A DNA stretch of 64,000 nt, taken from a virus. The stretch lies in the IMG/VR virus record IMGVR_UViG_3300030493_000012; one strand, written 5' to 3'. A program made the position numbers and the translations under genes. Below, one piece after another: positions 42,301 to 59,441 of the stretch (within the stretch, counting starts at the first letter, position 1; each line of letters begins with the position of its first letter). The notes under the pieces were generated by a model. The model was not told where the DNA came from. It worked only from the letters and a program-made list of their open reading frames with translations, and did no database searches.

Positions 42301-42393
42301 AAAATTTTGTTTCTTACTGTATTCACTTTGTATTATTTAAACCTAGAATGCAAGCTCTATTTTGGACTATTTAGGCGAAAGCAATTTTCTCAA

Positions 42394-42684
42394 TTATGAG
42401 AATAAATCAAAGGTTACATTTTCAACCTTGCAATCCCAATAATCAGACAAAATAGCTTCTGCCCGCGAAAACCACAATTCCTTATTAAAGTTAATATCAT
42501 TATCCGTCAAATCCAAATTTTGAGACTGGCCAAAAATCTCGACTTTGCCAAAATCATTCAAATTGCCCGTAACATTCACGCCAGCCATATTACAATAGGT
42601 TGAATTGCACCCAAGCAACATTGCGCTTGAATCATCTATTTGAACCAAAGGTTTTCCGCAAGCTTTACAAATTAAATTTTTCAT
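42394..42684 (-). CDS. Hypothetical zinc-binding protein
   Basis: CKACG...C...C; TTGCCA-17-TAAGGT-6-ATG. Confidence 0.65.
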   Translation of the reverse strand: MKNLICKACGKPLVQIDDSSAMLLGCNSTYCNMAGVNVTGNLNDFGKVEIFGQSQNLDLTDNDINFNKELWFSRAEAILSDYWDCKVENVTFDLFS

Positions 42685-42920
42685 AATTTCACCTTAAACT
42701 TTTCAAACTATCATGGCAAGGTTTATTTTAGACTATTTTTTCTCAAATTTGAGAATTAACCACAAAATCAAACTCCACTAAGTTTTTGGCCTAGTGGAGT
42801 ATCACATATATTTGACTAAATGGGCGGGCTTTTGTTTTCGTGCATATATATTTAGGCTTATTGATTTGAAAATCCGATTATTAAGGCTAGAGCAACAAAA
42901 ATCAATATCATATTTCTAGC

Positions 42921-43364
42921 CTAGGCCAAACCCGCGTTATTGTCAATCTTGTTTTGCTCAAAAATTCGGGCTTCGTTGCAAGCTGCCTTGTAAGCTTCAC
43001 AAACAAGCATAAAATCGTCAAAATTGACTTTAATCCCATAATCATCTAATGAAGCCCATGCACCGTCAAAATCATCGCCAAGCATTTTAATGCTTTCCAA
43101 GGCTAACACCCGGTTTTTGAGACTGAAATTATCATGCAAAGCTTTCCGCCATGCCGCGAATGCTGGCATCGTTGCAAGCTTTTCAGCATATTTTGCCTTG
43201 CATTTTTCAAAGTGTGCTTTCGGGTCAATTCCCGGTTTGACTTTGCCCCAAACTTTCCATCCGTGCCCGTAGTTTTTCAGGATTTTTCCATCCGCGCAGT
43301 AGCAAACTTTGTGTGTCAAACGTTCAATTTGCCCCAATTCACCATGCTTATAGATTGTTGCCAT
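42921..43364 (-). CDS. Hypothetical protein
   Basis: 147 aa; TTGACA-17-TAGTGT promoter. Confidence 0.65.
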   Translation of the reverse strand: MATIYKHGELGQIERLTHKVCYCADGKILKNYGHGWKVWGKVKPGIDPKAHFEKCKAKYAEKLATMPAFAAWRKALHDNFSLKNRVLALESIKMLGDDFDGAWASLDDYGIKVNFDDFMLVCEAYKAACNEARIFEQNKIDNNAGLA

Positions 43365-43439
43365 AATTTTTTATTTAATTTATTGTTTGCCTAACATCTA
43401 CACACTAAACTTTTGTGCTTGGTTTGTCAATATCCAAAA

Positions 43440-43724
43440 TCAGGAAAAATAAGCAACAATTTCCCAACGTCCACTGGACATTTTATACCAAACAAATTCA
43501 AGATATACCTTGCCAAGCAAAGTTTGAATTTCCCAATTTTTCCGCCCCTCATTGCCAACAAAACCAAACAAGGTTAAAGAATCATCATTCAAGGGAATAT
43601 GGTTATCAGCCAAAACTTGAACAATACCATTAAAAGACTGCCCCAAAGTCTCAAAGTAATTGTTTGTTGTGGTAAAAGGAGCAATTTCCTTATTGAGTTT
43701 TTTAACTAAAGCGTTTTTGGTCAT
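43440..43724 (-). CDS. Hypothetical protein
   Basis: Likely start MTKNALV; ends SGRWEIVAYFS. Confidence 0.6.
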   Translation of the reverse strand: MTKNALVKKLNKEIAPFTTTNNYFETLGQSFNGIVQVLADNHIPLNDDSLTLFGFVGNEGRKNWEIQTLLGKVYLEFVWYKMSSGRWEIVAYFS

Positions 43725-43780
43725 AATTTTTTGTTTTTTTTCTGTCAACCTATTCGCCTTAAATTTTTTTAACTAAGCTG

Positions 43781-44134
43781 TCAATGGCAAAGATTAAAAT
43801 TTTTGAACCAAGCAAACTGTAATTTCCTCGCCTCAATTTCATGTGGCCGATTGACATAAGGCATTAAACATTCTTTACCATACCAAAACTCTTTTCCTTT
43901 ATGTATTTGCAACTTGCCCTTTAAAATTTGCAAACAATGAATATATTCATGGGCTAAGCCTATTATTTGGCTGTCTAATACTCTGCATATATTTACCCTA
44001 ATGCTTTTAGGCTGGCCGTTTTGCAAAACTAATTCTGCCACTGTACTATTTAAACTCCAATCTTTGAAAAACTCTATGGCTAAAGGCTTAATGCCAGCTT
44101 TTCGCGCAAAGTATTTGTTTGCCCTTGCCAGCAT
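43781..44134 (-). CDS. Putative HExxH metallopeptidase-like protein
   Basis: LAHEYIHCLQ...PHEIEA. Confidence 0.6.
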   Translation of the reverse strand: MLARANKYFARKAGIKPLAIEFFKDWSLNSTVAELVLQNGQPKSIRVNICRVLDSQIIGLAHEYIHCLQILKGKLQIHKGKEFWYGKECLMPYVNRPHEIEARKLQFAWFKNFNLCH

Positions 44135-44135
44135 A

Positions 44136-44219
44136 TTAAAACAAGGCTAATGCCAAAAACAAAACAGCGACAACAAAACAGCCAATTACATCCAAAGTTA
44201 TTTCAAAGTTATGTTTCAT
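44136..44219 (-). CDS. 27-aa membrane peptide
   Basis: MKHNFEITLDVIGCFVVAVLFLALALF; TTTACT-17-TATTGT-6-ATG; stop 1 nt before next ATG. Confidence 0.5.
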   Translation of the reverse strand: MKHNFEITLDVIGCFVVAVLFLALALF

Positions 44220-44311
44220 TTATTGACAATAAACTTATTTAGCCTAAAAGTAAAGAATTATTTGAATTTATTTAGCGAGAGCAATTCTCAATTTTGAGAA
44301 TTATAGACAAC

Positions 44312-44338
44312 AAAAAGCCCAGCTTATTAGGCCGGGCT
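44312..44338 (-). terminator. Probable intrinsic terminator (possibly bidirectional)
   Basis: AGCCC...GGGCT flanked by A and T runs. Confidence 0.55.
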
Positions 44339-44353
44339 GATTTTTTGGTTTAT

Positions 44354-44512
44354 TTAGCTAACATTGCAAGCGGCATAAAACCGCGCAAAGTCGAATCGCG
44401 GATTAGCCTTTTTACAGGTTTCCGCCGTCAATTCTGCCTGTTTTCGGCGCTCTGCCTTATCGGCAATCTTGCTAATGTTTTCCGCAAAGAGTTTGAAGTG
44501 TTTTTTTGTCAT
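44354..44512 (-). CDS. Small conserved phage protein (MTKKHF...NPRFD..RF type)
   Basis: 52 aa, below track cutoff. Confidence 0.65.
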   Translation of the reverse strand: MTKKHFKLFAENISKIADKAERRKQAELTAETCKKANPRFDFARFYAACNVS

Positions 44513-44609
44513 TTTTTTATTATTGTTAAAGGTTTCTTATTACTTTTTTACTCTAAATTATTTATGCTTGGTTGTAAAGCTTTTATTTGGATTATTTCAG
44601 CGAGAGCAA

Positions 44610-45188
44610 TTAATCCATCCGGCTATCAGTATAAGCATTAATCCCGTATTTTGAAAGCACGGCGCAAAAGGCATTACAATATTTCTCTTTGCGGTCTAAG
44701 CTTTGGTTAAAATCATGGCAGGGAAAGGCCCAACCGCCATAATAGTTTTTATAACCCATTTTGTTGGCTTTCAACCATTTAGCAAAGCCAGAATTTCCCG
44801 GCTTGATAACAGCATTCGCGAATCCGCAACATCCTTCATTGACAACCCAACTTTGGACAACCGGGCTTGAATCATCCAAGGGATTGGCATGACCTTGAAC
44901 AACCATTGGGACTGGCTTGGACGCATTGCCAGCGGCTAGGCCAGCGGCATGGGCCTCATTGAATACCTTTTGATAATCAAGTTTAACGGTCAAAGTTTTG
45001 CCATTTGACTTGTCAATCCCGCCAAGCGCAATCAATTCATTTTTGACCGTAACCGGGTCATTTTGAGCGCGGGTTATAAAACCGCTGGCTTGGCCCTTGG
45101 TTAGCGTCAATTTTCTGACATCCGTTTTTGTGGCCAAATAAAGAGCAAAACTTTGGCGTGGCGTCATGTTTTCGATTGTATCAATCAT
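44610..45188 (-). CDS. Conserved-type phage hypothetical protein
   Basis: EGCCGFA...NQSLDRKE.Y..AF..VL...GI.A...SRMD. Confidence 0.7.
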   Translation of the reverse strand: MIDTIENMTPRQSFALYLATKTDVRKLTLTKGQASGFITRAQNDPVTVKNELIALGGIDKSNGKTLTVKLDYQKVFNEAHAAGLAAGNASKPVPMVVQGHANPLDDSSPVVQSWVVNEGCCGFANAVIKPGNSGFAKWLKANKMGYKNYYGGWAFPCHDFNQSLDRKEKYCNAFCAVLSKYGINAYTDSRMD

Positions 45189-45453
45189 TTTTTTGTTTTG
45201 TTAATTGTTTGCCTAACGATTTAACCTTAGTTTTTTGCGCCTAATCTGTCAATTCTAATTTTCAAGATTTTTCAGCAAGTTTTTGATGTCAATCCCAAGA
45301 CAATACAAAGAGACTTTAGCCCGCTCTTTGTTGTCGCTATTGACGCAAGATTTTAAAGTTTCAAACTCAATTCTGGCATTTTCCAGAATTTGCATAAAAA
45401 TAAGGTTATCTTTCATAATTTAAACTCTATTCTTTTTAACCTTGTTTGTCAAT

Positions 45454-45798
45454 CTAAACTTTGGAATATTTGCTTTCGTCCAAAGTAAGATGATTGTCAG
45501 TTTTGTCATTCAACCACAAAGTTTTGACAATTGCGCGATTGCCATCAGGAATCAAAGCCAGTGAAATATCTTTAGTCTCATTGTAAGACTGGCGGATAAC
45601 AACTTTCGCAACACTTTGCCCCAAAATTTCACATTCAACCACATTTTGCGCTGTTATGTCAATTTCCAGAGGGGGCTTAACTTTGCCGTATCTGTCATTC
45701 AGACAAGCTTGCAAACTATGCATGGTAAACTTGCAAACATAATGGCCCAAAGCTTTATTGACCGTGACTGGCAAACCGATTTGTTTATGATATAACAT
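45454..45798 (-). CDS. Hypothetical protein
   Basis: 114 aa, ends KTLWLNDKTDNH.TLD.SKY. Confidence 0.65.
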   Translation of the reverse strand: MLYHKQIGLPVTVNKALGHYVCKFTMHSLQACLNDRYGKVKPPLEIDITAQNVVECEILGQSVAKVVIRQSYNETKDISLALIPDGNRAIVKTLWLNDKTDNHLTLDESKYSKV

Positions 45799-46087
45799 AA
45801 TTTGTTTTTTTGTTATATCTAAACTTAGGCTAATTTGTTTTAATTGTCAACTTTTTATTCAAACTATTTTTGATGATTAGTTAGCGCCAACAATAAAGCC
45901 ATTGTTATAAAGATTATTAGCATAATTTATAGGCCGGAAAAGTAGTGGCGGCAGCAAAAACAAAAGTTTTACCTTGGCTAGGAACATTAGGAACCGCCGA
46001 TTGCCAGTCAAAACAATCTTTTATTTACGGGCTAATATTTGTAACCAAGGCATGGTTTTCTCATTTCTGAGAATATACCATTTGAAA

Positions 46088-46306
46088 TTATTTAATTGCT
46101 CTCGCTGTATTATTCTCAATAAACCAGTCTGGCACATTGCTAGTTTGGAATTCCAAGTGTGTATTTTTGTAGATTAGCCCAAAGCTTGCATGATTTTTGT
46201 TGGCAAACCAAATTTCTGGCTTGTTATCTTCATTAAGCAAAATGTGTTGCCCGTTGCCAATGTAACAATTGTATTTGTAGCCAGCCTGTTTTAATGTTTG
46301 CTTCAT
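46088..46306 (-). CDS. Hypothetical protein (leaderless geometry)
   Basis: TTGACA-17-TAGGCT-6-ATG. Confidence 0.65.
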   Translation of the reverse strand: MKQTLKQAGYKYNCYIGNGQHILLNEDNKPEIWFANKNHASFGLIYKNTHLEFQTSNVPDWFIENNTARAIK

Positions 46307-46721
46307 AGTTTTAGCCTAACTTTTCAGAACAAAAATGTCAACCTAGTTTTTGGGTAAACTTTCCAAATACTTCATTGCCCCGTTGTAAGTGTTTTGCGCC
46401 TGTTTTTCCTCGCCATTAAAACAAGGATAATAGTCACAATAACCGGCCTTGCGAGCTTTGTCAATTTGCTCGTTTTGCTCTTTTGTCAGTGATTCAAAGT
46501 TTGTTTCCATATTTTTAGTTTGTATTTTTTAGCACGGTTTGTCAAATAAAATTAGTCTAAATCTTTTTTCCAATTATTTCGGTCTAATTTGGAACCTTTA
46601 CCCCTTTTAGGCTTAACCATTCTGGTTTTAAATTCTTGCATGTTGCGCCGGATTTTCCGAAAATTTTCTTTGTAATTGTGCATAATTTTAGTTTTAATTA
46701 TTTATACACAAAAAGCAATCT

Positions 46722-46955
46722 CTATTTGAAACAATTAGGGCAGCGATAATCTAAACGGCCATTAACAGCCCAACCAATTGGCGGTTGAATGAATTTATTC
46801 TTTAAACACTTTTCAATTTCGCCATTAAAATCATCAAGCGTCATTTTGCCAGTATTAGTGCAAATTGTGGTTGAACTATAAGCTTGAGCGCCACACTTTT
46901 TGCAAGTAACCACTGGGCAAACCTTTATTTCGGCGCTAATTAATGTTTGAATCAT
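46722..46955 (-). CDS. Small zinc-binding protein
   Basis: CKKCG...CPNC; promoter adjacent. Confidence 0.6.
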   Translation of the reverse strand: MIQTLISAEIKVCPVVTCKKCGAQAYSSTTICTNTGKMTLDDFNGEIEKCLKNKFIQPPIGWAVNGRLDYRCPNCFK

Positions 46956-46986
46956 ATTTTTAGTTTTAATTTTTGCGCCTCAAATG

Positions 46987-47175
46987 TCAAACTTTATTAT
47001 AAGTAATTCGCCCTGTATATTCAAGCAAATTAACCATTAGCTTGCAAATCAAAATCCCAAGCAACACCCCATCACCAAAATTCAAATCCGAAATCACAAA
47101 CCAAGCTTTCCAGCCAAGGTAAAGAGAAACATAAAAATGCCAATATGCAAAAATTACTCTGTCAAGTGTGTCCAT
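46987..47175 (-). CDS. Small membrane protein
   Basis: Hydrophobic; TTGTAT-17-AAATAT-6-ATG. Confidence 0.55.
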   Translation of the reverse strand: MDTLDRVIFAYWHFYVSLYLGWKAWFVISDLNFGDGVLLGILICKLMVNLLEYTGRITYNKV

Positions 47176-47363
47176 AATTCTATATTTGGTTATTTAGTCC
47201 GAAAATACAAGTTCTAATTTGGTTTATTTTAGCGAGAGCAATTAGCGACAGCCAAAAATTAAAAACAGAGTTTTGTTTTAGCTTTGTATCTCTGTTAATG
47301 CTTAACGATAACCCGGACTTTGTAAGTCTTATTACCGTCCAATTTAGGTTTGCAGCCTAAAAA

Positions 47364-47552
47364 TTAATTATCAATTGGTTGAAAAACCGTCCCGGCTGGC
47401 AACCTACTAATGTGCCTTAATCCATCATGCTCTCGGCGTTTGTTATAATACCATAACGCCTCATCTTCTTTTGTTTCCATTGGTTTATCAGAAACAATTT
47501 CTGAACATGACGACATCCAATCGGTGAGAGGAAAAATTACTTTGTATTTCAT
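47364..47552 (-). CDS. Hypothetical protein
   Basis: TTGACA-17-TAAATT-6-ATG. Confidence 0.65.
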   Translation of the reverse strand: MKYKVIFPLTDWMSSCSEIVSDKPMETKEDEALWYYNKRREHDGLRHISRLPAGTVFQPIDN

Positions 47553-47590
47553 GTTTTAAATTTAAACTATTTTATTTACTTTGTCAATCT

Positions 47591-47764
47591 TTATTCCAAA
47601 ATTTTCTCTTGAATTTTAAAATTTGGAACATAGGAGGAAATTTTTCGGATTGATTTTATTTCATTGGCGACAAAATCATCTGCCTTTTTTTGGCTGTCAA
47701 AAATCCTAATCAAATACCATTCTTCATTATCGCCAGCAATGTTAAAAACGCAATAAACTTTCAT
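47591..47764 (-). CDS. Hypothetical protein
   Basis: True start MKVYCVF, 6 nt after AATAAT. Confidence 0.6.
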   Translation of the reverse strand: MKVYCVFNIAGDNEEWYLIRIFDSQKKADDFVANEIKSIRKISSYVPNFKIQEKILE

Positions 47765-47852
47765 ATTTTGATTATTGATTATTTGGCCTATGATGTCAAC
47801 AAAAAAACTGGCTAAGTTTTTATGCCTAGCCAACTTTGCGAATCTTTTACCG

Positions 47853-48545
47853 TTAAACCAGAGCCAAAGACTCTGCCCCAACCGCTTCCCAGACATTGCG
47901 AGTGTCAAGATTAGTCAAACCCTGCCACGCTCGCGCCTTGGCATTCGCGCCAGCCCCAAACTCACTACTGGCCAACTGCTTAAGCCGATTTTCCCCGCCG
48001 CTTGACTCATGACTATAAAAATCAGTCACAGCCGAAAAACAATCAAGCATAGTTTCCCCGCGATTACCAGCCCCGCGCACAAACAATTCCCCAAGCCGTT
48101 CGACAGTGTTAGTTGCACGGGTGGACAGCTTGCGCTTTTCGCCACCGGTCATAAACCCGGCAAAGATATTCTTGGCGCGGCCAGCATCGCAGGTTTCCCC
48201 GGCCAAAGTTTCCATCTTGGCTTGGAAGATTTCGCGGCCAGATTGCATTTCGATAATGGCCTTTTCAACTTCGTCCAATCGGCTGTCAATATTGGCGGTG
48301 TGCTTCAAGTAAAAATTAATGTTGTGATTTTCGGCCAGCGAAATATTCAAAGTATTCTGGCACACAACACAGGTGTTGCAATCAAACAATGACAGCCCCA
48401 TTGACCCGTCATGACTCCAAGCCGCCACCATTCGATTATTGAATTCGCGATTTGCAATGTCAAACTTATCCTTAACGCCTTCAATTTTGACCGTAACGGC
48501 ATACTTGCTACGCCCGCCACCAGTCAATATCTTTCCAGCCAACAA
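47853..48545 (-). CDS. DUF932/DUF945-like protein, apparently N-terminally truncated
   Basis: WSHDGS...VVCQNTL...KHTA...YSAVTDF-like motifs; in-frame stop just upstream. Confidence 0.6.
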   Translation of the reverse strand: MLAGKILTGGGRSKYAVTVKIEGVKDKFDIANREFNNRMVAAWSHDGSMGLSLFDCNTCVVCQNTLNISLAENHNINFYLKHTANIDSRLDEVEKAIIEMQSGREIFQAKMETLAGETCDAGRAKNIFAGFMTGGEKRKLSTRATNTVERLGELFVRGAGNRGETMLDCFSAVTDFYSHESSGGENRLKQLASSEFGAGANAKARAWQGLTNLDTRNVWEAVGAESLALV

Positions 48546-48881
48546 AATTAAATGGCCTAACGCCGCTTGTTACTTCAATGACGAAAAAAGTGTTTTTGGT
48601 TTCCATGTTTCTATATTTACCTATTTGAGCGGCCAAGTCAACTAAAAATCAATCTATTTTTAATCGGCGGCAGCCAAGTATTTCTTCAAAACCTCTGCTC
48701 TTTTCTTATACAAACCATCCAAAACAATCTCTTGCCTTGCCATTTCAGCCTCTAAATTGATTATTTCAACACTCAAATTCTCATGTTCATCAGCCAAGAT
48801 GTTTTTTTTGTTAAAAGTATATGTTTTGTCCATACTTTTATAATTAACTAAAAAAACACGAAAATCAAGAAAAAACTTAGT

Positions 48882-49274
48882 TTATTTTGCTTTTTTAAGC
48901 TCTTTTTGAACTTTTAGCCAGTAATTTTGTGTTAAATGCTTCTTTTTTGCAAAATTTGGGCCTGAATTCCAACATCGGGCCATGCTTTCAAAGTCCTGTA
49001 TTTTAACAGATTGTGGACAATACCTATTAAGATAAGCCTCCATTACTTTTACAGAGTAGGCTAAGTTAGTACATTGAATATAAGAGCCGCTAATTTTAGA
49101 ATCAATCCAACAATTTTTGCTAATCATCAGTGGGCCTAATGACATTTTTGAATCCCCATATATTAGCCCAACTTTACCAGAACTTTCAACTTGATGAATA
49201 GCTTGGACAAACTTTGCTGGCAAAGCCGCGTTTGTATTTAAAGCCAAAATAATGGGGATTAGGTATTTAAGCAT
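48882..49274 (-). CDS. Secreted lysozyme-like (i-type/transglycosylase-like) muramidase
   Basis: Signal-like MLKYLIPIILALNTNA; AIHQVESSG...GD...GPL...ARCWNSGPN. Confidence 0.7.
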   Translation of the reverse strand: MLKYLIPIILALNTNAALPAKFVQAIHQVESSGKVGLIYGDSKMSLGPLMISKNCWIDSKISGSYIQCTNLAYSVKVMEAYLNRYCPQSVKIQDFESMARCWNSGPNFAKKKHLTQNYWLKVQKELKKAK

Positions 49275-49374
49275 AATTTTGTAAGAATTGGCGACAGCCC
49301 AAACCAAGCTATCAGCGTTTTTAGAGGCTTTAGACTCTTTGCAACCTTTTTATTAAAAATAAGAATAAAGAAAA

Positions 49375-49628
49375 GTGTCGCACATTCATCCTACTTTCTT
49401 TTATTTCCTTCTGGAACACCAAGGTTAACTCGCTTTGTGCAAGTCGGCTTGGTAAGAAAGCTCCAGCGACCTATCATTATTGACGGCTAGACAGCTAATC
49501 CAGCTAGTAATTTAATTCAGGTTTTCTTCCCTAGGTTATTTTGCCAGTGTGCTACACTGAATTGTTTAACCTTTCACTTTTTCTCTATTCTTGCGGTTGC
49601 AAGCCGCTTTACTTTGATTGCTCTCGCT
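49375..49628 (-). ncRNA. Candidate structured RNA or long 5' leader
   Basis: TTGACT-17-TAGTAT promoter (49635-49663), no ORF, several predicted helices. Confidence 0.4.
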
Positions 49629-49795
49629 AACTAAATACTAAATTAAACAAACACCAAAGTCAAATTTTATTTCTAAAAAAGGTCTGACGGTCTCAGGTCG
49701 CTCAGCTTGAATAGCAAGGATTCAAACGCTGCCCTCAATGAACCGCCAGATTGTTAAGAGCCGGGAAGGCTCGCAACATCCTAAGATTAAGTTTT

Positions 49796-50137
49796 TTAAC
49801 TGAAAAAGTCAACAATTTTCTTTGCCAAACTGAAAAAGTCAAAACTAGCCTTTTCTTCCATCCTGCCCAAAGCTATTTTCACTCCAGTCTTATAGCAGAA
49901 ATTGTCCATTTTGGAGCAAACAGCAGACCCGACAAACCTACCTTGCGGGCCATCCAATTCAATGATTGTCAAGCCGCCCTTTGGATGTCGGCGCTTGCCA
50001 TCCAAATCCTTAATAGGCTCAACTTTTTGCCTCTTGACAATCGGAACGCCGAAATTGGCATAACGATAGTGCTTTACGCGAACCTTATAACCTTTTTGGC
50101 GCAGGCTCTGGATTGATTCACTTGATAGGTTGGGCAT
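49796..50137 (-). CDS. Conserved-type phage hypothetical protein
   Basis: GGLT...G.A.CS..DNF....G..IALGR; TTGACA-17-TAATAT-6-ATG. Confidence 0.7.
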   Translation of the reverse strand: MPNLSSESIQSLRQKGYKVRVKHYRYANFGVPIVKRQKVEPIKDLDGKRRHPKGGLTIIELDGPQGRFVGSAVCSKMDNFCYKTGVKIALGRMEEKASFDFFSLAKKIVDFFS

Positions 50138-50154
50138 ATTCTTATATTAGGTTT

Positions 50155-51820: not shown

Positions 51821-51865
51821 TAGTAATGGCCATTATTAAAAACAAAACTAGCATTTTTGGCGGGG

Positions 51866-52054: not shown

Positions 52055-52099
52055 AGTTTTATTATTAAGTTTAGTCTAATGTTCTGAAAATGTCAATCT

Positions 52100-52366
52100 T
52101 TATTCTTCAATTTCTGCCACCATTTTGACAGACTTGACTTCTTGAAACCGATAGTCGCTAGTAAAATCACTAACAAAATGAATCAAGACCTTGCCACAAG
52201 GCGAGTATGTAACAATTTTTCCATTGTAAACAAAAGCAATTGCATTATTATACAAATCATCATTTGGCCTAGATGTAACCAAATAAGGAACGCCCTGGGC
52301 AATTTCGGTTGCAGACAAGGTTGTGTTTGCTCGCTTTGTCTTTTTGATTTCAAGTTCAATTTTCAT
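52100..52366 (-). CDS. Hypothetical protein
   Basis: TTGACT-17-TAACAT promoter. Confidence 0.6.
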   Translation of the reverse strand: MKIELEIKKTKRANTTLSATEIAQGVPYLVTSRPNDDLYNNAIAFVYNGKIVTYSPCGKVLIHFVSDFTSDYRFQEVKSVKMVAEIEE

Positions 52367-52412
52367 AGTTTTTGCTTTATTTAATGTTAAATTTTTGGTT
52401 ACGAAAAGTCAA

Positions 52413-52643
52413 TCATTTAATTTCGATTGTGGCGTCACTCTTGAAAAACATCAAGCCGCCATCAATAGCGTCAACAATAGAAGTTTTTGCAGAATTCCAA
52501 ATACGACCGTCGCTCAATCGAACAGCCAGATAACGACCATCTGGATTCGAAAGCACATAAACATTACCATCTGGGTCTCGAAACAAATCGCCAGCTTTGA
52601 AATCGGTTTTTCGGATAATATCTTTGGTTATGATTTTGTTCAT
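52413..52643 (-). CDS. Hypothetical protein
   Basis: TTGACT-17-TAAACT-6-ATG. Confidence 0.65.
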   Translation of the reverse strand: MNKIITKDIIRKTDFKAGDLFRDPDGNVYVLSNPDGRYLAVRLSDGRIWNSAKTSIVDAIDGGLMFFKSDATIEIK

Positions 52644-52680
52644 AGTTTGAGTTTAGGTTAAAAATTTAAAAGAGTCAAGA

Positions 52681-52971
52681 TTATTCAGCAGCCAGCCAAG
52701 TAAACAATTCCTTAGAAGTTTCAAAAACAAAAACTTCAAAATTGGCATTAATTAGATTCTTAAGAAGCCCCGCTAAAGTAGGCTCATCGTAAATACAATA
52801 ACCATTTCCTTTGGTAAGCTGGTTTGTTGACAGTAGTTTATAAAATCCCATCTCGTATTTTTCTCTGGTTACGAAAGCTTTTTCGCCGCAACGCTTTACT
52901 CCAATAAAATGTTTTGGCGTAACGTCTTGCACTTTAATTTCGGTTGTATTATCAATAATAACTTTAATCAT
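52681..52971 (-). CDS. Hypothetical protein
   Basis: TTGACT-17-TAAACT-6-ATG. Confidence 0.65.
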   Translation of the reverse strand: MIKVIIDNTTEIKVQDVTPKHFIGVKRCGEKAFVTREKYEMGFYKLLSTNQLTKGNGYCIYDEPTLAGLLKNLINANFEVFVFETSKELFTWLAAE

Positions 52972-53014
52972 AGTTTTAGTTTAGTTTAAAAGTTCCGAAA
53001 AGTCAATCTTTTAT

Positions 53015-53305
53015 TTAAATAAACCGCCCGTCCTTGTCAGTATATTTCTTTTTAACTGGCGAGGCTGGATAATCTTTGCTAATAGCTTCATGCTTTGTCA
53101 TGCTGTTGTTGCCAGAATTACCAGTCCCCTGATTCTTGAAAACAGTCATTTGCATATTGCGCTTGACATTCTGCGAAATAACCTGAGTGCCAGCCTTTTT
53201 GGCCGCAAAATTAAAGGTTTGTGAACCAACAGTCACACTGGTTTGTCCAGTCTTGCGGAAGGTTTTAAGGGCGGAATTGAATCGGGCTTTGGTGTTTTTA
53301 TTCAT
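53015..53305 (-). CDS. Hypothetical basic protein
   Basis: TTGCAT-17-TATTAT promoter. Confidence 0.6.
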   Translation of the reverse strand: MNKNTKARFNSALKTFRKTGQTSVTVGSQTFNFAAKKAGTQVISQNVKRNMQMTVFKNQGTGNSGNNSMTKHEAISKDYPASPVKKKYTDKDGRFI

Positions 53306-53702
53306 TGTTTTGGCGTTCGCGGTTTGTTCTATATTTCAATAATAGGTTATTTAGTCCGAAAATGCAAGTGTTATTTCCAACTAATATTCAAATCAGTAAG
53401 AATCTTTCGCGCCAAATAAATTTCACCATCAGCGCATCCTGTATAATAGGCATTATCATAATTACCACCACAAGATGTATCAAAATCAGAATCATCAGAA
53501 AGCATTTTTTGCTTGGCTGTGGTTTTTAGTTCTTCAATCAATTTTTCCATAATTTAGATTATTGTTTATTCGGCCTAAAATGTCAAGTTTTATTTTCTGA
53601 AAATGGTGGGCCTTATGGCTTGAGTTGACCATAATGACAGCTTATGAGGCTGCTGTTATTTACCTCGTTTTAACTAAAGGCCCGTAAGTTGCTGATTATC
53701 AA

Positions 53703-54116
53703 TCAATTATCAAGAACAATCGGCCAATTACTTTCAACATACCTACTTGCCTCTTCAAAATTCCTAGGCTTGTCATTGTAAAGTTTAAAAACACAACCAT
53801 CAAGCCCGCCAAAGACAATTTTGCCATTATAAGTTTCCATCGGCACAACAAAAGTTAGTTTGTCAGAATACTTTTTTCCAAGTTCCATCTTAAAAACTGG
53901 CTTAAAATTTTTGGCAAGAAAAGACTCAAAATCTTGCTTGTTTTGGATAAGAGAACCATCAGGAACATCAGAACTACTAAAAGTCTTATTGTCCAAATTC
54001 AAAGTGAGATAATTATCGCTAAGTACATGATTGTCGCGCTTAAATCCATACTTTTCAGCTAGTTCAACACAAGAGAGGCTGTTTATAACAACAATGTTGG
54101 AGATTTCAATTTTCAT
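53703..54116 (-). CDS. Hypothetical protein (C-domain shared with 57860-58327)
   Basis: TTGACT-17-TAAACT-6-ATG. Confidence 0.65.
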   Translation of the reverse strand: MKIEISNIVVINSLSCVELAEKYGFKRDNHVLSDNYLTLNLDNKTFSSSDVPDGSLIQNKQDFESFLAKNFKPVFKMELGKKYSDKLTFVVPMETYNGKIVFGGLDGCVFKLYNDKPRNFEEASRYVESNWPIVLDN

Positions 54117-54171
54117 AATTTAAGTTTAGAGTTTTGTGTTTAAAGAGTCAAGTTTATTGTTTGATTAAACC

Positions 54172-54182
54172 AGCGAGAGCAA
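54172..54182 (-). promoter_or_regulatory. TTGCTCTCGCT box centred at about -61 (representative copy)
   Basis: 20 bp upstream of the -35 at 54146-54151; the same spacing is seen at other promoters. Confidence 0.65.
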
Positions 54183-54812
54183 TTAATGATAACGATAAGC
54201 CACATTTTTAACTTTGGTTGACCAGCAAAGCCGACAATCCAAACATTTATTGTTTTGTTTTGGTGCGCGGCAAGTCCAGCCATTCCTAACAACCGTTGAT
54301 GTTGTAACACCAAGGCTTTGCGCCAAAGTTGTAAAGGCCGGGCCATCAATCATGTAACTTGAAAGCCTAATATTCAGGTTTTTCGGAACCTTGTTACCCT
54401 TTTTAATATAAGAACTGACAATCGAAATCTCTTTAGTTGGCAACCAAAATTTAATCCGGCCACACAAAGAGGCAATTTCGCAAATTTGAGCCAGCATTTT
54501 TTCAGATTGCAAATCTCCCGAATCAAACCAACGAAAGTAACCGCTTGATTCTGTGGCATTTATAACGGTTGCCATTGCCAGCACAAAATTAGGATGATTA
54601 AAAGCATTTAGCCGAAAATCATGGGCATTTTTAACATTATCATAAAGATAATTACCACGGCGAGCATAGCATTTATTGCAAACGCTTCCCTCAATTTCAT
54701 ATAATTTGCCGCCAGTAATGCATTTTAGTGCCGAAATTGAATAACCATAACAAGGCATTTTGCTTGGTTCGCTCAAATTACCAATAATGGCCTTTGCTTC
54801 GTTTAATGTCAT
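54183..54812 (-). CDS. Gp88-like phage protein
   Basis: LSEPSKMPC..Y...C...VCNKCYA..GNY...YFRWFDSGDLQS...FWLPTKE. Confidence 0.75.
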   Translation of the reverse strand: MTLNEAKAIIGNLSEPSKMPCYGYSISALKCITGGKLYEIEGSVCNKCYARRGNYLYDNVKNAHDFRLNAFNHPNFVLAMATVINATESSGYFRWFDSGDLQSEKMLAQICEIASLCGRIKFWLPTKEISIVSSYIKKGNKVPKNLNIRLSSYMIDGPAFTTLAQSLGVTTSTVVRNGWTCRAPKQNNKCLDCRLCWSTKVKNVAYRYH

Positions 54813-54888
54813 ACTTAAAGACTAATCTTTATTTACGTTTATGTCAACTTATTTTGTAAGGATTCACGCTTCTGGTGTAACCTAATAT

Positions 54889-55779
54889 ATGAAAACATTT
54901 ATTTATGCTCTTTTCTGCCCAATAGACAATACGCCAAGATATGTCGGGAAATCTAACGAAATGAGATTTCCATACCGATTAAAAGAACACGTAAGGCCTT
55001 CAACACTAAAAACAAACACACATAAAAACAACTGGATAAAATGGCTTTTAAAACAAGGTAAAAAACCGATTATTAAAATAATTGATATTGGTGACGAAAA
55101 CACATACGCATTAAAAGAAAAATATTGGGTAAAATGCTATAAAAAGCTTGGATTTGATTTAACAAACGCAACTGAAGGAGGCGAAGGTATGGCGAGATTA
55201 AAAGACAAAAGAGTTATTAAAGAAGAACAAAAAATCAATATAAGTAACACATTAAAAAAGCTTTACAAAGAACATCCCGAAATAATTACAAAAGCAATTC
55301 CTAAAATAGTGGCGACCAGAGCAACACAAAACACAAACAAAAATTCAAAATTCAAAAAAGGGATTTCATTATGCCATCTTGGCTATAGAACATACGCTTC
55401 TAAACATCATAACCGAATAGAGATAGCCATAACTAAAACTCTGGAAGAGGCGGTTTTTATAAAAGATGTTGTCTATTTACTTTTATATCCAAACGCTTAT
55501 GTTCCAATTAACGACATCAAAACATACGAAAATTTAGATAAATTAGAGTTTATTAAAAAAATCTTAAGAAAATCTTATTCAAGTAGGTTTTATGGCGTAA
55601 ACAAATACGGAAAAAAATGGGCGGTAAGAGATAAAAATGACAATAGAGTTGGTGTTTTTGAAACCGAGGAAGCGGCAGCGCAACAATCCGCAATAATAAG
55701 AAATTCTAATATTGAAAGTATCACCAGAAAAGATAAATTTGATATTTTTATGGAAATGCTCAGTGACAAAACTTATTAA
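54889..55779 (+). CDS. GIY-YIG endonuclease with AP2-like C-terminal domain
   Basis: FIYAL...YVGKS...R..EH...E..W...LTNATEGGEG; SSRFYGVNKYGKKW; GTGTAA 8 nt upstream. Confidence 0.8.
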   Translation: MKTFIYALFCPIDNTPRYVGKSNEMRFPYRLKEHVRPSTLKTNTHKNNWIKWLLKQGKKPIIKIIDIGDENTYALKEKYWVKCYKKLGFDLTNATEGGEGMARLKDKRVIKEEQKINISNTLKKLYKEHPEIITKAIPKIVATRATQNTNKNSKFKKGISLCHLGYRTYASKHHNRIEIAITKTLEEAVFIKDVVYLLLYPNAYVPINDIKTYENLDKLEFIKKILRKSYSSRFYGVNKYGKKWAVRDKNDNRVGVFETEEAAAQQSAIIRNSNIESITRKDKFDIFMEMLSDKTY

Positions 55780-55780
55780 T

Positions 55781-55876
55781 TCACTTTTTGTCACAAGTAA
55801 AGCCAACTGGCAGATTAAAAATTGCAATGTATTTAGGCAATTTGGCGTTACCGAAACTGAATTTGAGTTTTTCCAT
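55781..55876 (-). pseudogene. Truncated N-terminus of a second Gp88-like gene
   Basis: MEKLKFSFGNAKLPKYIAIFNLPVGFTC then stop at the endonuclease end; TTGACA-17-CAATAT-6-ATG intact. Confidence 0.55.
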
Positions 55877-55911
55877 GATTTAATATTGTATTTAATTTCC
55901 GAAAATGTCAA

Positions 55912-56151
55912 CTAAAACATTGAAGCAAAATCGGCGCGGCCATCGCTCCATCCATAACTATAACCATTGGCAAAATTCCTAGCTTCTTTTTCTTCTTTAA
56001 TATAGAAAGTTTTGACTAAGGTTTTTTGTTTGGTTTCGCCGTTTTCAACATAAACAGCAATGCCTTTACCCCACAATCCGACACAAACCATTGATTGTGA
56101 ATTACCTAGTTGAGCCGCAAAAAGCATTTCTTTAATGTCGTTAATAATCAT
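55912..56151 (-). CDS. Hypothetical protein
   Basis: TTGACT-17-TAACCT-6-ATG. Confidence 0.6.
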   Translation of the reverse strand: MIINDIKEMLFAAQLGNSQSMVCVGLWGKGIAVYVENGETKQKTLVKTFYIKEEKEARNFANGYSYGWSDGRADFASMF

Positions 56152-56419
56152 ATTTTTAGGTTAAGCTAAATTCCAAACAAAGTCAACTTTTTATTTTATT
56201 TAAATAAGCGAGAGCAACTAGTCAAGCGCACAATTAATATTTTCTGTATCAATTTTAAAACTATCACTAACAAAAGTCCCCTCTGGTAATTCAGCGTTAT
56301 CTGCCTTATTGATAGCCTCTTCCAGACAAGATGCCTCAATTTCCATGTCGCCGCACATTGTCCAAGTAACAGGAATAGTAAATCTCATGTCTATATTTAA
56401 GGCTTAATTAACGAAAATG

Positions 56420-56698
56420 TCAAGTTTGTTCTGGCGCAAATCCGTCAATAGAAATAATATTGTAAATCTCGGTTTTCTCAATTTTGAGAATTTCAATTTT
56501 GTCTCTCAAAGTTTGATTATGCATTCGCTCTAAAAACTCTATATACTCAATAGCCGCCGCTTCGTTTAGAAAAATACTATTAACATCAATATTGGCAAGA
56601 AATCTTTCTAACGGGTTTAAGTGTGCCGTGTATTCAAACTCAAAATACTTTTCAGTATTTTTAAGGCGCAAAACATAATAAGTGGAGATTTTCGTCAT
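56420..56698 (-). CDS. Hypothetical protein
   Basis: TTGACT-17-CATCAT-6-ATG. Confidence 0.6.
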   Translation of the reverse strand: MTKISTYYVLRLKNTEKYFEFEYTAHLNPLERFLANIDVNSIFLNEAAAIEYIEFLERMHNQTLRDKIEILKIEKTEIYNIISIDGFAPEQT

Positions 56699-56733
56699 GT
56701 TCTAATGATGAATTAAAAAGATTAAGAAGTCAA

Positions 56734-56928
56734 CTATTTAATACCTAATTCCGGCAAAGAACCAACAATATTTTTCAAAACATTTCTAATTGGTTTTAAA
56801 TCAACCATTACCGCCCGAACAGCGACGTTTGGATGAACAGTAGATTTAATTACATTTTCAAGTGCTTGAACGAAAATTTTCTTTTCCGATTCTAACTGTT
56901 GAATCCGAGCTATCAAATTAGTATCCAT
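56734..56928 (-). CDS. Hypothetical protein
   Basis: True start MDTNLIA; TTGACT-17-TATTCT-6-ATG. Confidence 0.6.
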   Translation of the reverse strand: MDTNLIARIQQLESEKKIFVQALENVIKSTVHPNVAVRAVMVDLKPIRNVLKNIVGSLPELGIK

Positions 56929-57707
56929 ATTTAAAGAATAGATTTTCGTAACAAAGAAGTCAATTATAAAAAGAAATAAGAGCAAGAAAAATCAAAGCTT
57001 CCAAATCTGATACGATGGGAAAGCAACAATAAATCTCACCCTCGACTATTTTACACTTTTTAGTTATTAAAATCAATTATTTTGTTATGTTTTTCCAAGT
57101 TTTGAGTGTAAGATATTATGATACGATGGTAATAACCCAAAATATCCTCAGTTATGAGTCTGCTTGCCACTATGGCCTAAAAAGAGCAGAGAATAATGAC
57201 ATTAGAATAAGACAGGTAATTGATAGCGTGATTACTGTTAAGACAACCAAAGCCCGTAAAAAGGGTCTCCACAAACTTGCTAACATCAAGGAGGTATTTC
57301 GGGAGAACGCGCCTTCACAGTGGATGCAATCGAATAATAAATCAAATAAGATTGTTCTAAATGCTGATACCTTAAACCGACAGGGCGAAGGAACACAGTT
57401 AGAAACACAAGAACATAGGCATTGCCAGAACTTATTCTTTCAAACTAATCAGGTGAGTCTCAGAGCAAAGAGCAGAACTGAAGATACGCTACCGCGAGCC
57501 TAAAAGATACCGCGCTTGATTATTGGTTTATTTGGTAATTAGAAAAATTACTAAATGGGTTTCCTTTGCTTGTTTCCTTAACCTCCAAGGCTATAGGCGA
57601 AGAAAGCACTAAATCGAAGGCGTTAGCCGAAGATTTATTAGCGGAGCTAATTAATAAATATAAATAAATCATTTGATTAGTCCGAAAACAGAGTGTATAA
57701 TCTATTG

Positions 57708-57751
57708 AGCCTTACTAGCAACTTCGGCTGGTTTAAAAGGCTTATTTTTTT
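57708..57751 (+). ncRNA. Candidate ~44-nt hairpin small RNA
   Basis: TTGATT(57673)-17-TATAAT(57696) directly followed by a hairpin and T-run, with no ATG. Confidence 0.55.
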
Positions 57752-57859
57752 AATTAAAATTAATTCGCGCCAGCCAAATCTAATTCATGATAAGTCCAAA
57801 TACTCTCAATCATGTTGCTCTCGCTGATTGAATTAAAATTAATCTAAGAATTAGCCGCG

Positions 57860-58327
57860 TTAGCCAACATCAGCCAGTTTATAACTTCCAAGCCTCTCAA
57901 TTGTCTCAGCCTCAGACATTTGCTCTCCATTATTATAAAGATTAAAATCACAACCTTTACAGCCACCAAGAACATATTTGTTTGAGCCTTCAACTGAAAT
58001 AGGAACAATAAAACTTTTTTTGTTTGAATAATAATACCTCTTACCAACCTCAATTTTTGGTTTGTTCAGTTTTTCCAAGATAGAATCAATGTTGGAAAGT
58101 TCCGAAAATTCAACTAAATGGAAATCTTCTGGGGCATTGAAGGTTGCATTTATATAAGTAGGATAATAATAAACAATTGGATAAGCATTAATACATACGT
58201 TTTTAATTGTATCTTCCAAGATGATTTCCGAAATTTTACAGCCAATTTTAGAGGCCAAAAAATAAAGCGCGGCCAGTTTTTCAGCCTGATTGTTTGTCTT
58301 AATAGCGATATTCTTAATAGTAATCAT
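57860..58327 (-). CDS. Hypothetical protein, paralog pair member
   Basis: NNQAEKLAALYFLA motif. Confidence 0.7.
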   Translation of the reverse strand: MITIKNIAIKTNNQAEKLAALYFLASKIGCKISEIILEDTIKNVCINAYPIVYYYPTYINATFNAPEDFHLVEFSELSNIDSILEKLNKPKIEVGKRYYYSNKKSFIVPISVEGSNKYVLGGCKGCDFNLYNNGEQMSEAETIERLGSYKLADVG

Positions 58328-58385
58328 AGTTTTGTGGTTTAATCTATAGTCAAATAATACATTTTCGTGCTAATGAAGTCAAGGT

Positions 58386-58805
58386 TTAATTAGCGTCAAG
58401 CGAAAGTTTAGCCTTATACAATTCCTCAAGCACAGAGATAGGAAAACTTTGGCATCCTACAACCACCTTATCTTTGTAAACTTTAGCTGTATGTTCTTTG
58501 TTGAGAACAACTTCCACAAACTTTAACGCTAAATAAGAATCAAAGTTTTTGAGGTCAGAAAACTTCACAATTGTTATATCGTGGCCAACGTCAGAACAGG
58601 TAGCGGTAACAATTTCGCCACTAATATAAACATAAGGATGTTGCATTACCAGACTATTATTGGCAAGAGTATTTTTCAGAACAATATCTGAAATCTTACA
58701 GCCCGACTTTGCTGCCAAAAAGTACAAAGCCGCCAGTTTTTCAGCTTGGTTATTTATTTTAATGCGAATATTGCTGTATTTATTGTTCATATTTTTGGTG
58801 TTCAC
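58386..58805 (-). CDS. Hypothetical protein, paralog pair member
   Basis: NNQAEKLAALYFLA motif; C-terminal VVVGCQSF. Confidence 0.7.
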   Translation of the reverse strand: MNTKNMNNKYSNIRIKINNQAEKLAALYFLAAKSGCKISDIVLKNTLANNSLVMQHPYVYISGEIVTATCSDVGHDITIVKFSDLKNFDSYLALKFVEVVLNKEHTAKVYKDKVVVGCQSFPISVLEELYKAKLSLDAN

Positions 58806-59030
58806 GATTTGTTACTATTAAGAGTATTGATTAAAAAGGATTAATTGTCAATCTTTATCTACATTAAATTCAACAATTTCAGAAAGCCCAACAACACAAG
58901 AGTCGCCATTTTCCAACCAAAAGTTCATATAACCTTGGCTCCATTCTAAATTAATAATTTTAAATTGCTCGCTGGTTTTGTCTGTATAGTAAATAGTTAG
59001 TGTCATAATCAAATTATTGATTTTCGGAAC

Positions 59031-59441
59031 TTAATTGTCAATCTTTTTAACCAATTTCACGCCATCACAAAACACTGTTTTCCAAGGGCAATTAACAACA
59101 ATATTAGATTGATTAGTAAGAATAGTCTCGTTATTCCAAAATTCTATGATTATGCTTAAACGACTATTGTTACTCATTTTTCTCCCAATAACAGGATTCA
59201 AAACTTCGCACTCATAAATCCTAAGTTTTTCCATATTTCCGCAATAAGACATTGCCTCTGAAAAATCCGCAAAAACAAATAGTTTGGATTTTTTTAGCTT
59301 GGGGTAAACAAATTCATTTAATTTATATTCTACAACCAGAGAACTATCGGCAGTCCAAGAAGACCATAAACAATTATCAGAAGACTCAAAGACAACTTTG
59401 TAGTATTTTGTATTGCTCTCGCTAGTTGTGTTGTTTTCCAT
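59031..59441 (-). CDS. Hypothetical protein
   Basis: True start MENNTT; TTGATT-17-TATTCT-6-ATG. Confidence 0.65.
   Translation of the reverse strand: MENNTTSESNTKYYKVVFESSDNCLWSSWTADSSLVVEYKLNEFVYPKLKKSKLFVFADFSEAMSYCGNMEKLRIYECEVLNPVIGRKMSNNSRLSIIIEFWNNETILTNQSNIVVNCPWKTVFCDGVKLVKKIDN

Follow-up and report, generated by a model that had tools for sequence, protein, structure and literature searches.

The stretch analysed here, referred to as the window, covers 64 kb of a ~182-kb contig from an uncultivated groundwater phage, and the motif counts apply to this window. No signs of lysogeny were seen in these 64 kb.

The box and its surroundings in the window

The 11-bp sequence TTGCTCTCGCT (the box) has nine exact matches, all between 44.2 and 59.5 kb, compared with 0.02 expected from 100 dinucleotide-preserving shuffles. 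The nine copies listed in the initial annotation, with their coordinates and strands, are thereby confirmed, and so is their absence from the remainder of the window: a window scan found no exact TTGCTCTCGCT in 1–44 kb, and confinement of 9/9 copies to 15.2 kb out of 64 kb has p ~1e-5. The closest match outside the cluster is a copy with one mismatch at position 32698. Five boxes are in sense orientation (minus strand) and four are reversed (plus strand).

All five sense boxes precede promoters. The box at 44274..44284 is separated by a 19-bp A/T spacer from the -35 element TTTACT (44254-44249). The order on the minus strand is a terminator hairpin (44338-44316), a palindrome (44285-44300), the box, the 19-bp spacer and the -35, and the promoter reads TTTACT, 17 bp, TATTGT, 6 nt, ATG. 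Three boxes are located immediately 3' of stop codons and 20 bp from a -35: 44599..44609 after the TAA of a 192-aa gene (-35 TTTACA), 54172..54182 after the TAA of a GP88-family gene (-35 TTGACT, 54151-54146; downstream gene leaderless), and 56207..56217 after a TAG (-35 TTGACT; leaderless). The box at 47231..47241, also 20 bp from its -35 (TTGTAT), serves a leaderless promoter and is adjoined by a degenerate tandem copy, TGGCTGTCGCT (47244-47254). A variant with two mismatches, TTGCTTTCGCC (42374..42384, minus strand, sense), lies 20 bp from the -35 TTGCAT and 2 nt past a palindrome (42387-42402), and its 3' arm agrees with the pooled pattern described below.

The reversed boxes occupy other positions. 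ORF 46088-46306 contains the copy at 46096..46106 in its final six codons, and a palindrome (46058-46073) lies 22 nt from the 5' side of this copy. The copy at 49618..49628 forms, on the minus strand, the predicted +1 to +11 of an ORF-free RNA; including its 3' arm this site spans about -8 to +11, and the same arrangement is kept exactly in the related phage L085. The intergenic copy at 57815..57825 is found 34 nt past the stop of a 155-aa gene and is itself followed by C-ATG on the minus strand; it sits in a ~66-nt insert with flanks that are 13-nt direct repeats, ATTAATTTTAATT. The copy at 59413..59423 covers codons 7–10 of the leaderless ORF 59031-59441, corresponding to +19 to +29 of its promoter, and has the weakest 3' arm of all copies.

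The palindrome, TTCTCA-N4-TGAGAA, occurs in six exact copies versus 0.01 expected and looks operator-like. Three of the six adjoin a box on its 5' side, at 0 nt (44285..44300, strandless, abutting the box at 44274), 2 nt (42387-42402) and 22 nt (46058-46073). A hairpin-forming palindrome in front of three boxes, together with the TGCTCT of the box, which matches the start of E. coli rrn boxA, would suit a boxA/nut-like antitermination signal on nascent RNA. This reading is extremely unlikely, considering that sense copies precede their promoters instead of lying in leaders, that 4/9 copies are reversed, that some follow terminators and that the rest of the box is unlike boxA; a boxA/nut element would be located downstream in the transcript and in a single orientation.

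The full site and its distance to promoters

In five related phage contigs, 11 more copies were found, of which nine are exact and two have a T variant; genes common to these contigs and the window are only 71–76% identical in DNA. Pooling 21 independent instances from the window and the relatives gives a one-sided site of ~21 bp, A-R-TTGCTCTCGCT-R-R-n-T-n-A-A-T. In the 5' flank, A is found at -2 in 17/21 and a purine at -1 in 21/21 instances, and the 3' arm has purines at +12 (19/21) and +13 (20/21), T at +15 (16/21) and A-A-T at +17 to +19 (18, 15 and 15/21, respectively). The arm pattern is present in all slot classes and in both orientations. Copies in the slot between a stop and the next promoter are mostly sense (12 sense, 2 reversed), and those in a leader or at +1 are mostly reversed (2 sense, 5 reversed), and most copies in either slot have the arm pointing to the promoter core, be the site upstream or downstream of it.

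A comparison can be drawn with the class I/II sites of CRP and of monomeric activators. Class I sites of the CRP type lie at about -61.5, and the alpha subunit of the polymerase would bind an A/T-rich spacer between site and -35. The initial annotation proposed such a class I activator at a fixed -61 position, touching the alpha C-terminal domain of RNA polymerase and boosting weak promoters that would form a middle or boosted class. Several observations in the window are consistent with this. The five sense copies do lie 19–20 bp before a -35 and the variant at 42374 lies 20 bp before one, as had been reported; one copy in a relative has a gap of 19 bp; copies in front of promoters share one orientation; and the intervening 19–20 bp are A/T-rich and UP-element-like. 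Off-consensus -35s, remarked on earlier for several box promoters, were found in 5/7 long-gap box promoters (six from the window and one from L085), compared with 20 of the 85 cassettes that lack a box in the relatives and the window taken together (Fisher p = 0.015). The box accompanies only ~1 in 8 promoter cassettes.

With the geometry -35/17/-10/6/ATG, a 20-bp gap places the box at -66 to -56, and taking the ATG as +1 this is true for the leaderless promoters of 47231, 54172 and 56207. It does not apply to 44274, which is 1 bp nearer to the -35, or to 44599 and 42374, which carry leaders, so that the ATG is not +1 there.

The relatives depart further from a fixed position. Their gaps between box and -35 are 8, 9, 13, 13 and 19 bp, compared with 19–20 bp in the window, and the gaps of 8, 9, 13 and 13 bp precede consensus -35s. 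The shortest gaps, 8–9 bp, equal the length of the arm, so the full site abuts the -35 and never overlaps it. The homologous box and promoter module of 56207 (24 nt identical up to the ATG) precedes an unrelated gene in L091 with a gap of 13 bp instead of 20 bp, so that the two boxes face different sides of the helix. Spacing thus varies among relatives, an outcome that the initial annotation had itself named as speaking against its proposal, and the fixed -61 position has to be given up.

Dependence of these promoters on the box is not supported either, since orthologous weak promoters are found both with and without it. In L095, the orthologous weak promoter behind a shared terminator has no box; at the 44599 slot, the X3/X4 relatives lack ~13 nt and L095 carries the palindrome. 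A role restricted to upstream positions is at odds with copies at +1, at +21, inside 5' leaders and in terminal codons, three of which are in coding ends (46096, 59413 and 90498 of a relative). No activator was identified among the 69 early-region proteins searched. The class I activator is therefore distinctly unlikely; activation by the upstream copies would be one of several possible modes. Judged from sequence, the box looks like the binding site of a putative regulator and not like a classic CRP-style activator site. What is supported is that it is a real, asymmetric and strongly selected site linked to a subset of early promoters, several of them with weak -35s.

Turnover of the box and the ORF-free RNA

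Close relatives differ at boxes by clean indels of 11–26 nt. The X4/X6 relatives lack the 564-bp cassette that the window has at the 47231 slot; there, a terminator is joined on 8 nt ahead of a box with one mismatch. In L099, the closest relative, a sense box lies immediately 3' of the stop of the same 155-aa gene that is followed by the reversed box 57815 in the window. Such differences, together with the degenerate tandem copy at 47244, could indicate a recombination, mobility or nuclease signal, i.e., a boundary for module exchange or a recognition or nick site of a phage endonuclease, having no direct role in transcription. Boxes come and go as clean units, joints in relatives' contigs are located at 57815, 47239, 44267 and 56222, one junction contains the box, and orientation is opposite at the same junction in the window and L099. 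Motif-mediated shuffling of promoter cassettes has a documented precedent in the PeSLs of T4-type phages (PMC2839356, PMC4122927).

Counted against intergenic expectation, the joints lose their weight: four were observed versus ~3 expected under the assumption that joints fall preferentially in intergenic DNA, and the enrichment is gone. Eleven base pairs are short for homologous exchange, a pure signal predicts neither slot-dependent orientation nor a promoter-facing arm, and the ~50 near-identical promoter cores can themselves explain shuffling. A signal of this kind is accordingly quite improbable.

The PeSLs resemble the box in being conserved promoter-linked motifs of variable regions with small genes without assigned function, where insertions, deletions and replacements at the motifs distinguish one relative from another. 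Composites of terminator, motif and promoter also exist here; one is at 44274 and another belongs to the X4/X6 relative of 47231. However, a PeSL is itself a composite of a strong sigma-70 promoter and a terminator stem-loop that recurs at indel junctions of variable regions, whereas the box adds 11 bp to a promoter, is present also in leaders and coding ends, and is exact far beyond the needs of recombination. Most boxes are without a stem-loop, and the excess at junctions does not rise above the intergenic expectation.

The reversed box at 49618 belongs to a candidate structured, ORF-free RNA of ~320 nt (49307..49628, minus strand). Its promoter (49635..49663, minus strand) consists of TTGACT (49663-49658), 17 bp and TAGTAT (49640-49635), and AGCGAGAGCAA (minus strand) begins 7 nt past this TTGACT-17-TAGTAT, i.e., at predicted +1 to +11, in agreement with the initial annotation. 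In two phages the predicted +1 coincides exactly with the start of the anti-box, the surrounding promoter spacer having diverged. Conserved 5' and 3' blocks of the RNA pair mutually and leave ~7 nt of the anti-box free at the 5' end; folding of the RNAs of both phages is better than that of shuffled sequences (z = -3.9 and -4.9).

These features raise the question of recognition through RNA, in which the first 11–12 nt of this transcript (49628 to ~49307, minus strand) would act as a seed or guide, pairing with boxes in read-through transcripts or directing a protein to boxes in DNA. The first 11 nt, which begin with the unpaired 5' end of the folds, are exactly complementary to all boxes, and the purine always present at -1 stands opposite U12, with which it could pair. 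Targeting of either DNA strand would explain both orientations.

The conserved arm (+12 to +19) is, however, upstream of the predicted start of the RNA, so that pairing cannot explain it; conservation is not confined to the paired stretch, as a small-RNA seed would have it. Moreover, terminated RNAs would not include those sense boxes that follow a terminator (44274 and the relative of 47231), L099:467 has the T-variant in sense orientation at +1, and anti-boxes also occur at +1 or within leaders of ordinary mRNAs. The syntenic place in L090 is without such an RNA, the RNA has no Rfam match and no RNA-guided effector was found. RNA-level or RNA-guided recognition is on balance unlikely. Very unlikely is the specific proposal that the ~320-nt RNA is a guide whose first 11–12 nt direct a putative phage protein to boxes on either strand, or pair with box RNAs; if true, it would mean an RNA-programmed regulon with targets movable by copying an 11-bp tag.

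Comparison with dispersed phage operators

Recognition at the DNA level by a putative factor is the best reading of these sequence patterns, and from the initial annotation the asymmetric site for a factor is retained without the fixed-position activator. The sequences themselves establish the site along with its extent, conservation, turnover and orientation rule. There is about an even chance that the box is a dispersed asymmetric operator of a putative DNA-binding factor, comparable to the C1 operators of P1 or the stoperators of L5, and reshuffled together with promoter modules. The box would be the invariant core of the ~21-bp one-sided site, read by a sequence-specific factor that is most likely a phage-encoded protein, either a monomer or one with two unlike domains. 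Together the sites would make up a small regulon of the early accessory region, which is variable ("hyperplastic"), and they fill the few non-coding slots of a very compact genome. The slot running from a stop codon or terminator to the next -35 holds mostly sense copies; reversed copies prevail in the other, which comprises +1 and about +21 of promoters and short leaders. Upstream copies may modulate promoters, by aiding weak -35s or by shielding them from read-through, and copies over +1 or +21 may repress. Gain and loss of sites would result from shuffling of promoter modules between related phages. Clean indels of 11–26 nt are unusual for regulator sites, and the operator model needs this shuffling assumption. 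A regulatory role of the three coding-end copies is not obvious. The anti-box at the RNA 5' end is an operator over +1 in the model, but could mean more. No Pfam or PHROG DNA-binding domain was found among the 69 early-region proteins, and no homologue of P1 C1 or L5 gp71 in the 64-kb window and 35 kb of a relative.

The C1 repressor of P1 has 22 dispersed asymmetric 17-bp operators with the consensus ATTGCTCTAATAAATTT (PMC8546580; NC_005856 annotation). As in the case of the box, these one-sided sites are scattered over the phage genome in both orientations, at or near promoters. The left half of the P1 operator, ATTGCTCT, is identical to A+TTGCTCT, present in 7/9 exact boxes, and its right half, AATAAAT, is A/T-rich and resembles the arm. 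The box site differs by four extra bases (CGCT) between the halves; thus, the left 8 bp are identical but the 17-bp consensus is not matched, owing to the 4-bp insertion. P1 operators show degeneracy, in contrast to the invariant 11-bp core of the box, and P1 is a temperate coliphage whereas the box phage is an uncultivated groundwater phage of ~182 kb. In a tblastn search for a C1 homologue (64 kb plus 35 kb), the best E was 0.07 over 35 residues.

In mycobacteriophage L5, >20 asymmetric 13-mers, located in short intergenic spaces and in promoters, are bound by the repressor as a monomer (PMC9283540; for cluster A operators and stoperators see also PMC6550527). The L5 repressor gp71 (HTH and Stoperator domain) gave nothing below E = 0.8 by tblastn in the window and the relative's 35 kb. 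The sequences are unrelated, most boxes are just upstream of the promoter, and the 64 kb searched yielded only ~10 boxes, all within 17 kb. Orientation is tied to transcription in both systems; that of the box is mirrored around promoters and not uniform along transcription, with 12:2 sense after stops, 2:5 in leaders or at +1, and 4/9 reversed in the window. The L5 sites, ~13 bp long and a score or more per genome, are asymmetric and highly conserved like the box, one class overlapping the promoter and others being found in very short intergenic spaces just past genes. The boxes agree with the definition of such sites (12–14 bp; PMC9283540) in being dispersed, asymmetric and conserved and in lying in short intergenic spaces and at promoters. 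The L5 binder is a monomer in which two unlike domains contact DNA, and a protein of this kind would suit a one-sided site in two parts.

Placement and extent of the box in the early region

The window lies on a groundwater-metagenome phage contig about 182 kb long, JGI24732J26686_1000004 of JGI 3300002171, which represents an uncultivated lineage; a close relative was not found among deposited phages. Terminase, tape-measure and virion genes occupy 1–35 kb of the window. At 35–64 kb, nearly every small minus-strand gene has its own sigma-70-like TTGAC(A/T)-17-TAnnnT promoter, and because these promoters end about 6 nt 5' of the ATG, the roughly 50 single-gene cassettes of the phage are predicted to give leaderless messages. 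The stop codon of one gene mostly touches the -35 of the next.

The 11-bp box TTGCTCTCGCT is found in nine exact copies, against 0.02 expected from dinucleotide-preserving shuffles, and ranks first among the over-represented GC-containing 11-mers of the window. All nine copies fall within 44.2–59.5 kb; the late region offers at best a copy at 32698 with one mismatch. Sense (minus-strand) copies at 44599, 47231, 54172 and 56207 lie 20 bp upstream of a -35, and the one at 44274 lies 19 bp upstream. The variant TTGCTTTCGCC at 42374 is also 20 bp from a -35, and four of these six promoters have an off-consensus -35. Copy 49618, read on the minus strand as AGCGAGAGCAA, begins 7 nt downstream of TTGACT-17-TAGTAT, where an ORF-free stretch has its predicted +1. 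The initial annotation had described these copies, strands and gaps, and the +1 location of 49618, and the description was accurate on rechecking the window. A pattern scan of IMG/VR gave 73 single matches to the box, all chance occurrences in coding contexts.

The extent of the site was determined from 21 independent instances pooled in one orientation. On the 5' flank, A is present at -2 in 17 and a purine at -1 in all 21. The A/T-rich 3' arm has purines at +12 (19/21) and +13 (20/21), T at +15 (16/21), and A-A-T at +17 to +19 (18/21, 15/21, and 15/21). The pattern is present in all slot classes, and this conservation of the flanks indicates a bipartite, one-sided site of about 21 bp. The smallest gaps to a -35 (8–9 bp) equal the length of the arm; the complete site can therefore lie flush against the -35 and does not overlap it. 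The in-frame stop codon seen after the box (11/15, p = 7e-6) was rejected as a feature, being better explained by the purine-purine preference at +12/+13.

Orientation varies with the slot. Between a stop codon or terminator and the next promoter, 12 instances are sense and two reversed, whereas at +1, at about +21 or in leaders, two are sense and five reversed; in either slot, most copies thus have the arm pointing towards the promoter core.

A second element, the 16-bp palindrome TTCTCA-N4-TGAGAA, has six exact copies in the window (34100, 42387, 42740, 44285, 46058, and 56475) against 0.01 expected, and is likely the operator of a dimeric regulator. For three of the six, a box is close by, its 5' side being 0, 2, and 22 nt away, and such neighbourhoods look like composite operator regions. 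Relatives also carry the palindrome, at times in the slot that the box has in the window.

Our reading, held with moderate confidence and resting on one third of the contig (the 64-kb window) plus the contigs of relatives, is that the box would be a dispersed asymmetric operator, with copies that modulate or repress adjacent promoters and are reshuffled with promoter modules. A conserved, exact, portable operator is among the few handles on early-gene timing in uncultivated phages of this kind. If bound by a protein, the site is a bait for a new one-sided DNA-binding regulator, and a natural example of a regulon rewired by a small tag moving with promoter modules.

Gain, loss and spacing of the box in relatives

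Contigs of relatives were located by searching with neighbouring proteins. L085, L094, and L095 jointly make up 35 kb of one 94-kb Logan contig, ERR10034876_14117, the GP88 protein of which is 71% identical; a single JGI sample yielded L090 and L099, the closest relative of the window phage; L091, L092, and L093 are short related contigs. Genes common to the window and these contigs have a DNA identity of only 71–76%. The related contigs add 11 box copies, nine exact and two of the T-variant TTGCTTTCGCT, and the box system was not found in distant GP88-bearing phages (L074–L084, GC 40–60%).

Box positions are not orthologous, and the gap between a pre-promoter box and the -35 is 19 bp (L085:9936), 8 and 13 bp (L091), 9 bp (L093), or 13 bp (L099:2460). 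A module "box, spacer, TTGAC, ...AATTTAGCTTAACCTAAAAATATG" is common to the window (56207) and L091 (487), where it stands before unrelated genes with 20 and 13 bp, respectively, between box and -35. The 192-aa gene is followed, past its stop codon, by a box in the window and by the palindrome in L095; a small gene comes next, with the ending ...N-V-S-stop in the window and ...N-C-S-R-stop in L095, where the last codons come from the box. After a common terminator, the window has palindrome and box and L095 the palindrome alone, the -35 being weak in both. In contigs from two further sequencing runs, some 13 nt are missing at the 44599 box. In L099, the orthologue of the leaderless gene 56218–56388 has a 26-nt insert (T-variant box and A/T tail) exactly between discriminator and ATG, and another orthologous gene has an anti-box 4 nt upstream of its ATG. 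At the junction that carries the reversed 57815 copy in the window, L099 has a sense box immediately 3' of the stop codon, and in L090 a 1-mismatch anti-box begins exactly at +1. The genes 46088–46306 and L085:13065–13298, considered as orthologues with opposite boxes, have no similarity and were ruled out.

The varied gaps and the presence or absence at orthologous places make the fixed -61 position a trait of one genome, not of the element. The initial annotation had interpreted the box as a class I activator site at that fixed distance; its notion of an asymmetric site for a phage or host factor is supported, in the form of a selected one-sided DNA site, but the fixed distance does not hold. 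Since the distance is not conserved, the mechanism is not simply CRP-like, and a strict -61 activator site, suggested by the regular spacing in one genome, is quite improbable; a boxA-like element is far less probable still.

Some stop-to--35 gaps that have no box open with GC-rich relatives of it followed by an A/T run (TTGGCCTATCGGCGGCT, TGGCCTGTCGGCGGCT, TTGCCAGCGGCT, TTGGCTGTTGCT, and TGGCTGTCGCT; L085:8939–8964, 9395–9419, and 19093–19113, L090:1035–1059, and window 47244–47254). These sequences could represent boxes in decay or belong to another family of sites.

When relatives' contigs are aligned on the window, joints fall at 57815, 47239, 44267, and 56222, and the inserted letters of one junction include the box, as would suit a recombination or nuclease signal. 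The surplus of joints at boxes is, however, not significant once the preference of joints for intergenic DNA is allowed for, and such a signal is unlikely. The simplest account of box turnover is exchange between many near-identical promoter cores, by which the upstream half of a promoter module would carry the box along; such exchange has been documented for PeSL promoter cassettes in T4-type phages (PMC2839356, PMC4122927).

At window 57752–57843, an insert of about 66 nt with the reversed 57815 box lies between 13-nt direct repeats ATTAATTTTAATT. It is missing in L099, carries anti-box-C-ATG and a 17-codon ORF, and resembles either what is left of a leadered gene start or a short insertion that duplicated its target.

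A candidate RNA starting at copy 49618

The ORF-free, promoter-driven stretch is a candidate RNA of about 320 nt (window 49307–49628, minus strand; L085 counterpart 14946–15215). It folds better than shuffles (z = -3.9; L085 orthologue, z = -4.9). Between the two, identity is complete over the 5' 45 nt and over a 3' block, and the middle has diverged; in predicted folds, these conserved blocks pair together and about the first 7 nt are unpaired. With its predicted +1 at 49628, the candidate RNA would open with the exact complement of the sense boxes, so that its free 5' end could act as a seed or guide for them. Against this, the conserved arm of the site lies outside the RNA, past its 5' end, terminators precede some sense boxes, +1 copies exist in both orientations, and the RNA is missing from the syntenic place in L090; a seed or guide function is rather doubtful.

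No Rfam family matched the window or the RNA region. The 5'-end pattern had no match in IMG/VR and one, at about chance level, in a 64% GC Erythrobacter MAG. The neighbouring gene has a 113-aa product similar to the small Gp49/Rv2632c-like fold common in phages, an uninformative likeness, and in L090, L091, and L093 the non-coding inserts in the intergenic spot after this gene differ. L091 was considered as carrying the same RNA minus the anti-box and ruled out: its promoter is orthologous and the transcribed part unrelated, which decides nothing on the guide reading. Within the end of the 113-aa gene lies a promoter TTGACT-17-TTAATC (window 49755–49800, minus strand), followed by a conserved TTAGGATGTTGCGAGCCTTCCCGGCTC, also kept in L090, L093, and L085, which could be read as a leaderless ORF of 14 codons or, alternatively, as a small RNA.

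Candidate binders, comparable operators and other repeats

Pfam and PHROGs identified no DNA-binding domain among 69 early-region proteins. The plus-strand ORF 54889–55779 had no Pfam match at E <= 0.01, and PHROGs gave only a weak match to a family of unknown function. Another plus-strand ORF, 57087–57503, is placed like a regulator gene and has only two homologues among 1.8 billion proteins; it was rejected as not coding, its changes relative to L085 being even over codon phases (31/34/29), unlike GP88, the 113-aa gene, and DUF932, which have the expected third-position excess.

The surrounding block 57046–57709 (L099:802–1498, L085:11105–11653), called as a plus-strand ORF of 125–138 aa by gene callers, has 94% identity to its counterpart in the closest relative and 76% to that in L085. 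Because substitutions in it fall evenly on all three codon phases, which is not so for real genes nearby, it is probably a conserved non-coding element, perhaps an RNA. It adjoins a promoter-driven hairpin at 57673–57752.

Among known systems, the P1 C1 operators are 22 dispersed asymmetric 17-mers, ATTGCTCTAATAAATTT (PMC8546580), and the operator/stoperator sites of phage L5 are asymmetric 13-mers, lying at promoters and in short spaces between genes, that a monomeric two-domain repressor binds (PMC9283540). A plus the box and the P1 consensus have ATTGCTCT in common, and the arm is similar to the A/T half of that consensus, but the box site has four bases inserted between the two halves. Searches by tblastn with P1 C1 and the L5 repressor gp71 gave nothing significant in the window and 35 kb of a relative. 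The comparison supports P1 C1 and L5 as the systems that work most like the box sites, a likeness in working and not in membership.

A separate motif, ATTTTCGGAA, has 17 copies on both strands of the whole window against 0.5 expected (for example, at 2046, 7027, 39767, 39953, 40055, 55897, and 59020), and the looser TTTCG[GT]A[AC] has 55. Some of these copies open promoter spacers (TTGACATTTTCGGAA), and many lie elsewhere on either strand, the late region included.
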